DNA of 64,000 nt from the NCBI GenBank assembly GCA_944388035.1, contig CALXHF010000004.1, forward strand, positions 22,168 through 86,167, in the 5' to 3' direction. The notes beneath the pieces were generated by a model. The model made no database searches and was not told where the DNA came from. It was given only the letters and a program-made list of their open reading frames with translations. Shown piece after piece: positions 62,023-63,515 of the stretch (positions within the stretch are counted from its first letter, which is position 1; each line of letters begins with the position of its first letter). This DNA is from an uncultured Clostridia bacterium (GTDB lineage: Bacteria; Bacillota; Clostridia; TANB77; CAG-508). The translations under genes and the position numbers were made by a program.

Positions 62023-62051
62023 CTTGACATAATAAAAGATATATATTATAA
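62023..62051 (+). promoter_or_regulatory. consensus sigma-A promoter upstream of the radical SAM gene
   Basis: TTGACA (62023-62028), 17-nt spacer, TATAAT (62046-62051). A second TATAAT lies at 62051-62056. Confidence 0.5.
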
Positions 62052-62102
62052 TATAATCGTACTGTACATATTGTGTTCTAACTATTAGAAAGGATTCGCA
62101 TT

Positions 62103-63209
62103 ATGAGTGCAACAGTATTCGACTTTGAAGGAAGAAAAACAGTAATGCTCACAGTAACAGAAAAATGTAATTTGAATTGTTCCTACTGCTATGAGCACTG
62201 TAAATCTCCTAGAAGCATGAGTTTTGAAACAGCAAAAAGAATTCTTGATTATGAGTTTTCTCTCCAAGATGGTTTTGATTTCATTGAAGTAGATTTGTTT
62301 GGTGGGGAACCATTTCTTGAATTTGAATTGCTGAAAGAAATACACGATTATGTACTCTCTATTCAAAGTCCACATCGCAGAATATGTTTTTCCACATCAA
62401 ATGGCACACTTATTCACGGTACAATTCAAGATTGGCTCGAAAGAAACAAAGAAAGTTTTTGTGTCGGAATAAGTCTAGACGGAACCAGGCAAATGCATAA
62501 TATCAATAGAAGCAATTCTTTTGACCTTATTGATATAGATTTTTTCAAGCGTTGTTGGCCTCAACAAGATATAAAGATGACGGTTTCTAGAGAATCTTTA
62601 CATAATTTAGCTGAAGGAATTATTTTTATTCAAAGTTTGGGGTTTGCCTGTTCTGGTAGCTTTGCTTTTGGAATCAACTGGAATCTAGATGTAGACCTTC
62701 CTATTTTAGGAAAGCAATTAGACATATTAGCACAGTATTATCTAAATCACCCTCTTGTTCCAATTGCTGAAATTTTAGATTTGCGTTTGGAATATATCTC
62801 TTCTCAAGTTACCGCTCCTACAAGGTGGTGTGGTGCTGGAAAGCAAATGAAAGCTTATGATGTTGATGGGAATTGTTTTCCTTGCCAATCATTTATGCAG
62901 TTGACACAAGGTAAACCAATAGATTTAGACGCTATTCTATTTGATGATGAATCTAATCTAGCGGACCCAAAATGTAAAAACTGTATATTAAACAATGTTT
63001 GTTCTACTTGTTATGGTATGAATTATTCATTAACTGGCAAAATAAACGAGAGAGATAAGGAACATTGCCAATTCAGTAAATTAATTGCTATGTTTAACGC
63101 TTATGTTAAATTTCATCGTATTATGTCAAAGCCGGATTCTTCTTTGACATATGATGATTACAGAGTTCTTAGTTCAGTTTACAGCTTGAACCAAGAACTT
63201 TGTATATAA
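62103..63209 (+). CDS. radical SAM / SPASM-domain peptide-modifying enzyme (anSME-like)
   Basis: CNLNCSYCY (CX3CX2C) at residues 22-29. C-terminal Cys-rich SPASM-type region WCGAG...DGNCFPCQSF...CKNCILNNVCSTCYG. Higher GC than the surroundings. Confidence 0.85.
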   Translation: MSATVFDFEGRKTVMLTVTEKCNLNCSYCYEHCKSPRSMSFETAKRILDYEFSLQDGFDFIEVDLFGGEPFLEFELLKEIHDYVLSIQSPHRRICFSTSNGTLIHGTIQDWLERNKESFCVGISLDGTRQMHNINRSNSFDLIDIDFFKRCWPQQDIKMTVSRESLHNLAEGIIFIQSLGFACSGSFAFGINWNLDVDLPILGKQLDILAQYYLNHPLVPIAEILDLRLEYISSQVTAPTRWCGAGKQMKAYDVDGNCFPCQSFMQLTQGKPIDLDAILFDDESNLADPKCKNCILNNVCSTCYGMNYSLTGKINERDKEHCQFSKLIAMFNAYVKFHRIMSKPDSSLTYDDYRVLSSVYSLNQELCI

Positions 63210-63304
63210 CATTCGTCCTCTATCTAGGAGGTGATTAAAATGCTATATCCATAACATTAATTGTTGTTAGGTAATGTAACCACCAACCAGTCCAAGGAGG
63301 AAAA

Positions 63305-63472
63305 ATGTTTTCGTTGTCTAAGCAAGAGCTTTCTATGCTCGAAAAGAAGCTTGATTCTTTTGACTCTAGTCAAAAAAAGCTAACGGTTCCAATCTATGAG
63401 ATTGGTTGTCCAAACTGCAATGGACAATGCAAAAACGGCTGTGGTGTAACGTGCGTTTCTGTTTTTAGTTAG
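63305..63472 (+). CDS. Cys-rich 55-aa candidate RiPP precursor peptide
   Basis: Not in the supplied ORF track (below its size cutoff). ATG 63305, 6 nt after AAGGAGG. Translation: MFSLSKQELSMLEKKLDSFDSSQKKLTVPIYEIGCPNCNGQCKNGCGVTCVSVFS, then TAG. Followed by a strong terminator. Confidence 0.65.
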   Translation: MFSLSKQELSMLEKKLDSFDSSQKKLTVPIYEIGCPNCNGQCKNGCGVTCVSVFS

Positions 63473-63478
63473 TACCAC

Positions 63479-63515
63479 GGAAGAAGAGCTCAAATGAGCT
63501 CTTCTTCCTTTTTAA
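63479..63515. terminator. strong bidirectional intrinsic terminator
   Basis: GGAAGAAGAGCTC-aaat-GAGCTCTTCTTCC followed by TTTTT. Confidence 0.85.

Follow-up and report, generated by a model that had tools for sequence, protein, structure and literature searches.

Near the end of a 64,000-nucleotide stretch of contig CALXHF010000004.1 (the window), which belongs to an uncultured Clostridia bacterium, a compact two-gene cassette encodes a radical SAM (S-adenosylmethionine) enzyme followed by a small Cys-rich peptide. We propose that this cassette is an acquired operon for a peptide that is synthesized ribosomally and modified post-translationally (RiPP), whose enzyme would install thioethers on the core of the precursor, and we give this reading as a whole a probability of roughly 0.6. 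That the enzyme and the adjacent peptide are a maturase and its precursor is, taken by itself, very probable. By adjacency, architecture and selection, the enzyme, leader and core qualify as a generic RiPP precursor-maturase pair. A thioether, of sacti- or ranthi-type, is the most likely chemistry by analogy with the nearest known enzymes.

The cassette, its peptide and the wider family

A preliminary description of the window had recognized here a consensus promoter, a 368-aa enzyme, a 95-nt spacer, a 55-aa open reading frame (ORF) with a strong ribosome-binding site (RBS) and a 13-bp terminator, and all of these were recovered in place. The features of the unit, and of the gene that converges on it, are as follows.

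61922..63520, + strand: whole inserted module, 1,599 bp, missing in otherwise collinear relatives
62024..62052, + strand: sigma-70 consensus promoter TTGACA-17-TATAAT, 12/12 consensus positions
62087..62094, + strand: RBS of the enzyme gene, AGAAAGGA, read directly, 8 nt 5′ of the ATG at 62103
62103..63209, + strand: predicted radical SAM/SPASM peptide maturase, 368 aa, without a RiPP recognition element (RRE) domain
63210-63304: enzyme-peptide spacer, 95 nt
63226..63254, + strand: strong spacer RBS AGGAGGTG and 4-codon mini-ORF MLYP*, read directly
63294..63300, + strand: RBS of the precursor gene, AAGGAGG, read directly, kept in the relative L013
63305..63472, + strand: precursor ORF, 55 aa, 5 Cys within the last 21 residues
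63305..63406, + strand: precursor leader, residues 1-34, MFSLSKQELSMLEKKLDSFDSSQKKLTVPIYEIG
63407..63472, + strand: precursor core, residues 35-55, CPNCNGQCKNGCGVTCVSVFS, plus stop codon; C-x2-C-x3-C-x3-C-x3-C
63479..63508, + strand: intrinsic terminator, 13 pairs then a T-run, kept in L013
63513..64000, running off the window end, - strand: convergent membrane protein, ~161 aa, two transmembrane segments, no Pfam family

The expression signals of the unit are strong. Only two perfect TTGACA-17-TATAAT promoters occur in the 64-kb window, against 0.05 expected from shuffled sequences; the second lies at 30024-30052 on the reverse strand. The terminator has a folding energy of -23.8 kcal/mol (z = -7.7) and is probably shared with the convergent membrane-protein gene. 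L013, a metagenome-assembled Clostridia genome that is collinear at 90.8% identity, carries the entire unit, including the promoter, spacer mini-ORF and terminator, and the 70%-identical cassette of L012 has a perfect TTGACA-17-TATAAT of its own. The mini-ORF and its RBS, kept in L013, are missing from the 25-nt spacer of L012; they may be a relic, or a device for translational coupling or regulation. No credible riboswitch or other RNA element was found in the 5′ untranslated region or the spacer.

The full peptide reads MFSLSKQELSMLEKKLDSFDSSQKKLTVPIYEIGCPNCNGQCKNGCGVTCVSVFS. The segment GCPNCNGQCKNGCGVTCV of its core is invariant across lineages, and the block G-CPNCNGQCKNGCGVTC-V (G34-V51) is unchanged in eight homologues behind a variable leader. 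Over these 18 codons, the window, L013, L012 and L011 differ by 4-12 synonymous changes (9-12 between lineages) and by no amino-acid change; in the leader, about half of the changed codons are non-synonymous between lineages. By these changes, the core is under extreme purifying selection. Its invariant residues include N37, N39, N44, T49 and V51, with N39-G-Q-C42 forming an NxxC motif, and C38, C42, C46 and C50 place a Cys at every fourth residue, as in the targets of TIGR04115-type maturases. Asp and Glu are absent from the core.

The window peptide matched none of the target models TIGR04114, TIGR04117 and TIGR04118, nor TIGR03973 (SCIFF) at E <= 1, and it has five Cys in 55 residues where SCIFF precursors have six in about 45. 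A profile built from eight peptides and run against 1.84 billion representatives returned its own cluster and nothing else, and the JGI metagenomes yielded one further locus. By this measure the CPNCNGQC... peptide is rare, and the wider family lies beyond the reach of short-profile searches. On every contig that carries it, the peptide lies 3′ of an enzyme of 62-95% identity, which it adjoins in L001-L006, L011-L013 and L094.

The wider family was reached through the enzyme, which has at least 812 homologue clusters in at least eight phyla. A scan of GTDB species representatives gave 165 enzyme relatives, and the loci of the best 80 of these 165 were examined. They come from Clostridia, Bacilli, Erysipelotrichaceae, Coriobacteriia, Spirochaetes, Bacteroidales, Chloroflexi, Planctomycetes, Cloacimonetes and Thermodesulfovibrionales. 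An adjacent small ORF on the same strand, with at least four Cys and at least two CxxxC motifs, is present in 68 of the 80, and in about 78 under looser criteria; in most of the 12 loci left over, the Cys peptides are looser and carry a similar leader. The proposal of a precursor-plus-maturase cassette is thus borne out by the conserved adjacency of the small ORF and by selection on its core. The preliminary description had also remarked that the precursor follows the maturase, the reverse of the order in SCIFF systems. This holds for the window, and the order varies within the family, with the peptide upstream of the enzyme in 50 loci and downstream in 19.

Family peptides begin with MF[KNQ][LI][ST]xE and have a leader of about 34 residues. 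They contain 2-18 Cys, and 310 of the 420 Cys-Cys gaps counted family-wide are three residues long. Position x2 of the repeat is Gly in 40% of cases, and x3 prefers Ser, Thr, Gly or Asn. Many of these cores likewise contain no Asp or Glu. Three sampled peptides pass the cut-off of TIGR04114 (the "Cys-rich repeat" radical SAM target), while others match TIGR04117, TIGR04118 (AC3_0185 family) or SCIFF (E 0.022), all below threshold. In public records, the enzymes are named "radical SAM protein" or "4Fe-4S cluster-binding domain-containing protein" and the peptides are listed as "hypothetical protein"; our literature searches, which covered CXXX repeats and Cys-rich RiPPs of radical SAM enzymes, turned up no paper on the enzyme-peptide family. 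By its model scores, the family is an uncurated sister of PapB and TIGR04115 among the radical SAM/SPASM-modified Cys-rich RiPPs, outside every defined family.

Individual loci depart from the two-gene layout. Three precursor genes stand in tandem in L081 (5204-5997), L015 has one on each side of the enzyme (3737-3919 and 5160-5345), and L086 (1464-2739) encodes four Asp/Cys-rich peptides, e.g. ...CGCDEACGCDDPEKDNDPP... The Spirochaetes loci L025 (3638-3976) and L026 (1258-1596) encode 112-aa precursors with 18 Cys in a near-perfect C-K/S-x-x repeat (CKTGCSQSCKAGCKAGCKSSC...); they mark the family's extreme and look metallothionein-like. In 11 of the 80 loci, a GNAT acetyltransferase gene follows the enzyme by 6-159 nt (e.g. 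L028 1509-2051); its product could act in tailoring, e.g. by N-acetylating the core. An ABC ATPase is encoded nearby in 6 of the 80. One cassette, with the CXXX peptide downstream of the enzyme, occurs on L093 (22-2087 of MT836223.1, "UNVERIFIED: Bacteriophage sp.", a human-faecal contig), where it adjoins the C-terminal fragment of a tyrosine recombinase. In IMG/VR, no close member of the enzyme family was found, the best being 31% identical.

The enzyme and the proposed chemistry

The sequence CNLNCSYCY (residues 22-30) holds the radical SAM cluster motif C22-x3-C26-x2-C29, which is invariant in 116 homologues. PF04055 passes the Pfam gathering score (37.3 versus 29.5), and Radical_SAM and Fer4_12 are the only Pfam matches of the enzyme. 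Ten Cys are kept across the 116 homologues, namely these three and C243, C261, C291, C294, C300, C303 and C322. The latter seven correspond to the multi-Cys, SPASM-like C-terminal region of the preliminary description, which therefore stands as a family-wide motif. SPASM domains have 7-8 C-terminal Cys in the pattern CX9-15GX4C ... CX2CX5CX3C ... C, which bind two auxiliary clusters. The enzyme displays this pattern as C243-x12-G-x4-C261, C291-x2-C294-x5-C300-x2-C303 and C322, but with x2 in place of x3 in the last gap. No Pfam match to a PqqD-like RRE was found in it. We regard the enzyme as a compact SPASM-type peptide maturase without an RRE; its SPASM region falls just under the TIGR04085 cut-off.

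The best NCBIfam model is PapB (NF047865), with 141.3 bits against a cut-off of 340 and residues 13-316 aligned to positions 4-329 of 330. TIGR04115 ranks second, with 125.5 bits against 350 and a full-length alignment. These two are the sole top-ranked models aligned near full length; the remaining strong matches are all to peptide maturases and cover the N-terminal core only. Among the models singled out for checking in the preliminary description, TIGR03974 (ScfB; 80.8 bits versus 425, residues 12-143 only), TIGR04068 (CcpM/CLI_3235 system; 101 versus 500, N-terminal core only) and the sulfatase-maturase model TIGR03942 all score far under their cut-offs. A scan of 21 diverse homologues gave the same pattern, and none reached the PapB cut-off (best E 3.3e-51).

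The nearest solved structure by sequence is that of the thioether synthase CteB (E 3.9e-14), with an alignment that runs through the SPASM region and spans CteB residues 97-439, i.e., all but its N-terminal RRE. The enzyme was accordingly well described as sized like an anaerobic sulfatase-maturating enzyme (anSME) rather than like ScfB: it lacks the N-terminal RRE of about 95 residues of CteB/ScfB. An AlphaFold2 model built on the 116 homologues is of high confidence (pLDDT 93.6, pTM 0.91). CteB is its best structural match as well (TM-score 0.69-0.71), followed by anSME (~0.65), TigE and ChlB, with SuiB also matched. Residues 262, 263 and 265, near the active site, co-vary with the peptide subfamily. 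Seven SPASM Cys is the count of the CteB/PapB type, which leaves an open site on auxiliary cluster I (PMC10177961), and in PapB and Tte1186 a substrate Cys or SeCys binds this site (PMC10177961).

By analogy with CteB, PapB, Tte1186 and NxxcB, we suggest the following mechanism. A strong, constitutive-type promoter would drive the synthesis of the compact radical SAM enzyme and then of its substrate, up to the terminator. The enzyme has no RRE, and its complete 7-Cys SPASM domain would hold two auxiliary [4Fe-4S] clusters; the substrate would combine a helical leader of about 34 residues with a 21-residue core that has five Cys. The leader would be bound directly by the enzyme, with ChlB as a precedent. 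A core Cys thiolate would then ligate the open iron site of auxiliary cluster I, the 5′-deoxyadenosyl radical would take a hydrogen from a nearby residue, and the sulfur would capture the carbon radical to form an intramolecular thioether, with a loss of 2 Da each. Repeated cycles may yield up to five small in-line rings. The acceptors must be residues other than Asp or Glu, because the core has neither; the invariant N37, N39 (in an NxxC motif with C42, like that of NxxcA), N44, T49 and V51 could serve, as could C-alpha positions.

The closest curated relative, PapB, makes the ranthipeptide freyrasin, with six Cys-Asp S-C-beta thioethers in CX3D motifs. Both enzymes combine radical SAM and SPASM regions, both substrates repeat Cys with a period of 4-5 residues, and small in-line rings would be expected in both. 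Besides the gap in score, the window system differs from PapB in that its core has no Asp/Glu acceptors and its enzyme no RRE. PapB depends on a carboxylate acceptor (Asp or Glu) and is described as acting via an RRE-leader interaction (PMC9413430). Its chemistry cannot apply as such to the window core, because this core contains neither residue.

The CXXX-repeat system, with its TIGR04115 maturase, TIGR04119 domain and TIGR04114/04117/04118 targets, was defined in silico, and our literature searches found no experimental characterisation of it. Its targets also have a Cys at each fourth residue, but the window peptide matches none of the target models. A genuine TIGR04115 member, in L091 on Anaerococcus prevotii pAPRE01, is a 728-aa fusion that is only 30.6% identical to the window enzyme. 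Its locus displays an upstream peptide (...CKLMCVHTCRYSC...) with another leader (MNYFSKIKNDK...) and an ABC transporter alongside.

SCIFF systems (CteA-CteB, Tte1186a-Tte1186; TIGR03973/TIGR03974) resemble the cassette as minimal two-gene units without protease or exporter. The window pattern C-x2-C-x3-C-x3-C-x3-C presumably equals that of the first five SCIFF Cys, which is consistent with Cys32 as the fourth Cys (PMC8326336). In addition to the missing RRE, the low TIGR03974 score and the reversed gene order, the window peptide differs from SCIFF in having five Cys instead of six, another leader, and Val instead of Thr after the fifth Cys. SCIFF maturases join the fourth Cys (Cys32) to a Thr (PMC8326336). 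SCIFF is a conserved core feature of Clostridia, whereas the window cassette is a strain-variable insertion.

Two further systems bear on acceptor choice and leader binding. NxxcA/NxxcB form an Asn-Cys S-C-beta thioether in an NxxC motif, to which the invariant N39-G-Q-C42 of the window core corresponds, and Asn is by this analogy the most plausible functionalised acceptor available in the core. The NCBIfam scan gave no significant specific similarity of the enzyme to the NxxcB family. NxxcB clusters are streptococcal operons that are regulated by quorum sensing and include further genes. ChlB (PDB 9gm3), crystallised with its precursor leader, offers the precedent of a compact SPASM maturase (~375 aa) that binds the leader region directly. 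Its structure matches the model at TM-score 0.67-0.69, but it is only 15-16% identical to the window enzyme, and it is not known to be a Cys-donor thioether synthase.

Several observations weigh against thioether formation by this cassette. The enzyme scores below the cut-off of every curated family. Its SPASM region aligns to TIGR04085 over the full length but misses the cut-off narrowly (25.0 versus 27 bits), and it gives no match to PF13186, the Pfam SPASM model, even at E <= 10; among the 120 homologues listed, none has a precomputed match to this model. The cluster motif is CX2CX5CX2C, versus CX2CX5CX3C in CteB and in the canonical domain. The acceptors proven in ranthipeptides are only partly available, with Asp and Glu absent and with Thr and Asn present at positions other than those of SCIFF. 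Family-wide, only the Cys are kept and the x-positions vary freely, a pattern that fits C-alpha (sacti-type) or other chemistry no less than ranthi-type links. Finally, a search of the 80 loci and of 18 kb of upstream window sequence found no linked protease, exporter or immunity gene, as the preliminary description had noted of protease and exporter for the window itself.

The same pair could therefore act through another chemistry on its CXXX core, such as C-C or C-O crosslinks, epimerisation, Cys oxidation (formylglycine-like or dehydro) or a Cys-Cys-derived link, or the enzyme could prepare a peptide whose free Cys would bind a metal or an Fe-S cluster. We hold this to be possible, although unlikely. 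SPASM enzymes carry out many chemistries, and the fold matches of the model include anSME, TigE, ChlB and SuiB. The position of the enzyme outside every curated thioether-synthase family, its variant cluster motif, the conservation of Cys alone, the frequent Gly at x2 and the range of 2-18 Cys with metallothionein-like repeats all speak in the same direction. Against this, the nearest relatives by sequence and structure are, without exception, thioether synthases with Cys as the donor (PapB, the TIGR04115 class and CteB), Cys-rich cores are a hallmark of sacti- and ranthipeptides, and the 7-Cys SPASM with its open auxiliary-cluster-I site is the one to which substrate Cys or SeCys binds in PapB and Tte1186. 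We consequently keep the thioether reading as the favoured one. Somewhat more doubtful is the idea that the family installs an undescribed crosslink on cores with a Cys at every fourth residue and no proven Asp, Glu or Thr acceptors. One possible form would be a ladder of links from Cys to the backbone or to neighbours, whose number would scale with the repeats (2-18 Cys).

Horizontal acquisition at a variable site

The cassette is a strain-variable, self-contained and horizontally acquired module. The preliminary description had suggested acquisition from the raised G+C content, and empty sites in close relatives now demonstrate it. The cassette is missing from five of seven collinear relatives, these five found via RqcH. 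The RqcH protein of these five is 98% identical to that of the window in L177, 91-92% in L174, L178 and L179, and 74% in L175. In each of these genomes, the convergent membrane-protein gene comes directly after rqcH, and addA comes next. L178 and L179 align to the window up to 61925 and again from 63521, which places the indel at 61922-63520 (1,599 bp), with the rqcH terminator on one side and TATAATGCTAA on the other. The insert is also missing from L177, whose flanks match the window at 95-100% identity. The base composition agrees with this: the unit has 34.2% G+C, versus 26.4 +/- 2.2% for the window, and ranks first among 1,251 sliding windows of 1.5 kb, which also upholds the claim that it is richer in G+C than its flanks. 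G+C at third codon positions (GC3) is 0.25 in the cassette versus 0.14 in rqcH.

Variable gene content marks the intergenic site downstream of rqcH as a hotspot. Instead of the cassette, L172 (7037-7905) and L173 (6764-9232) carry other accessory genes there, one of them Fic and KilA-N and the other the defence-like RloB and AAA_21. A second lineage (L001-L006, L011, L012, L094) displays a 68-70% identical cassette in the other orientation, between addA and the homologous membrane-protein gene. This cassette has its own perfect consensus promoter and terminator; its DNA can be aligned with the window over the two genes only, and AddA is 52% identical. No integrase, transposase or clear target-site duplication was found at the insertion, and the cassette was probably spread by recombination. 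Two details of the junctions were considered and set aside. A 17-nt imperfect (88%) direct repeat at 61943-61959 and 63625-63641, 1,682 nt apart, lies off the L178/L179 junctions and is probably a chance occurrence in AT-rich DNA. A replacement of the 3′ end of the membrane gene by the insertion, as L174 had suggested, does not hold, since the window-type C-terminus also occurs in L178 and L179, which lack the cassette.

Deletion of an ancestral cassette in the relatives is the converse of acquisition, and we consider it improbable. Its presence is patchy, in the window and L013 (flanks 89.5% identical) and not in L177 with its closer flanks, and neither a mobility gene nor a clear target-site duplication marks an insertion. 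Yet the cassette is the most G+C-rich segment in the 64 kb, with a GC3 apart from that of rqcH, and it is missing in five of seven collinear relatives, including the more distant L175. A cassette with a 70%-identical enzyme also lies elsewhere, in the other orientation, in a lineage with AddA of only 52% identity, and other accessory genes occupy the same site in L172 and L173.

The neighbours of the cassette are those first described, rqcH (with NFACT domains) upstream and the convergent membrane-protein gene downstream. A further 18 kb upstream contains only housekeeping genes (relA/spoT, recJ, smpB, aldolase, peroxiredoxin, DUF2207). The membrane protein has an N-terminal transmembrane segment, a beta-rich middle and a C-terminal transmembrane segment, and homologues of its gene stand next to the cassette in L013 (5420..5905), L001 (9549..10046) and L094 (2168..2695). 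A 23%-identical homologue (E 4e-9) flanks the cassette of the other lineage, on the opposite side and in the opposite orientation. The association could be coincidental, a by-product of core synteny (addA - membrane gene), or it could reflect a functional link, e.g. in immunity or export.

Two unrelated C-terminal alleles of the membrane protein occur among close relatives (...LNTELEDWERIAIYIGLFLGIINIPNLLAL and ...LNIIPEELKNTEILVLAFITLLIFW; window ~63521-63605, L177 5242..5763, L174 6738..7208, L178 5233..5718), and the allele is independent of the presence of the cassette. Elsewhere in the window, two ORFs of 136 and 194 aa (58997..59407 and 59484..60068, reverse strand) together make up a broken GH3 (NagZ-like) gene. 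The gene is split in the same way in L174 and L177 and intact (363-367 aa) in L172, L175, L178 and L179, which points to a probable lineage-specific pseudogene and not to an assembly error. The recJ gene appears split into a DHH ORF and a DHHA1+OB ORF (47297..48121 and 48183..48989, reverse strand), either by a frameshift or as a genuine two-gene arrangement. Two paralogous DUF2207 membrane proteins are encoded less than 9 kb apart (49661..51985 and 57051..58982, reverse strand).

Remaining alternatives and significance

Two readings would remove the peptide from the system. The substrate of an anSME-type enzyme could be a protein encoded at another locus, and the small ORF an unrelated bystander. 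The size is similar (368 versus 370 aa), both have the radical SAM and SPASM fold and no RRE, and anSME is the second-best structural match. However, TIGR03942 gives 46.9 bits versus 349 and covers just the N-terminal core, neither a sulfatase nor any other recurrent protein partner was found in the 80 loci, a dedicated peptide partner is near-universal in the family, and the 1.6-kb insertion brings the enzyme and peptide only. A sulfatase maturase, which the preliminary description had named, with a sulfatase as conserved partner, as one of two findings that would overturn it, is thus very improbable. That the 55-codon ORF arose by chance beside an orphan enzyme, for which its small size and its lack of a curated family might speak, can be dismissed, as it has a strong RBS, an invariant 18-residue block in eight homologues, 0 non-synonymous versus 9-12 synonymous codon changes, and equivalent peptides beside distant enzyme homologues in many phyla.

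As for the role of the product, we favour, with low confidence, a physiological or signalling peptide like SCIFF over a classical bacteriocin, because the cassette brings along neither a protease nor an exporter nor an immunity gene. To a RiPP specialist, such a system would not be conceptually surprising unless its chemistry proves new.

These findings have implications for the mining of RiPPs. The family is abundant in bacteria of the gut and of anaerobic environments, where it is recorded under generic names only. Because the enzyme fails the SPASM models and has no RRE, mining based on either would be blind to it: the RRE-associated compendium (PMC10288494) would miss the family by design, and pipelines that rely on SPASM models would, we expect, overlook it too. 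With two genes, its own promoter and a small core, the cassette is about as minimal a system as heterologous expression allows. In addition, strains that carry or lack the insert, with 95-100% identity in the surrounding sequence, are natural controls for the function of exporter-less Cys-rich RiPPs. If our reading is true, a compact thioether enzyme independent of an acidic acceptor would be of interest for peptide stapling, like PapB. If the family instead installs an undescribed crosslink, it would represent a new RiPP class with a new, RRE-free mode of leader recognition.

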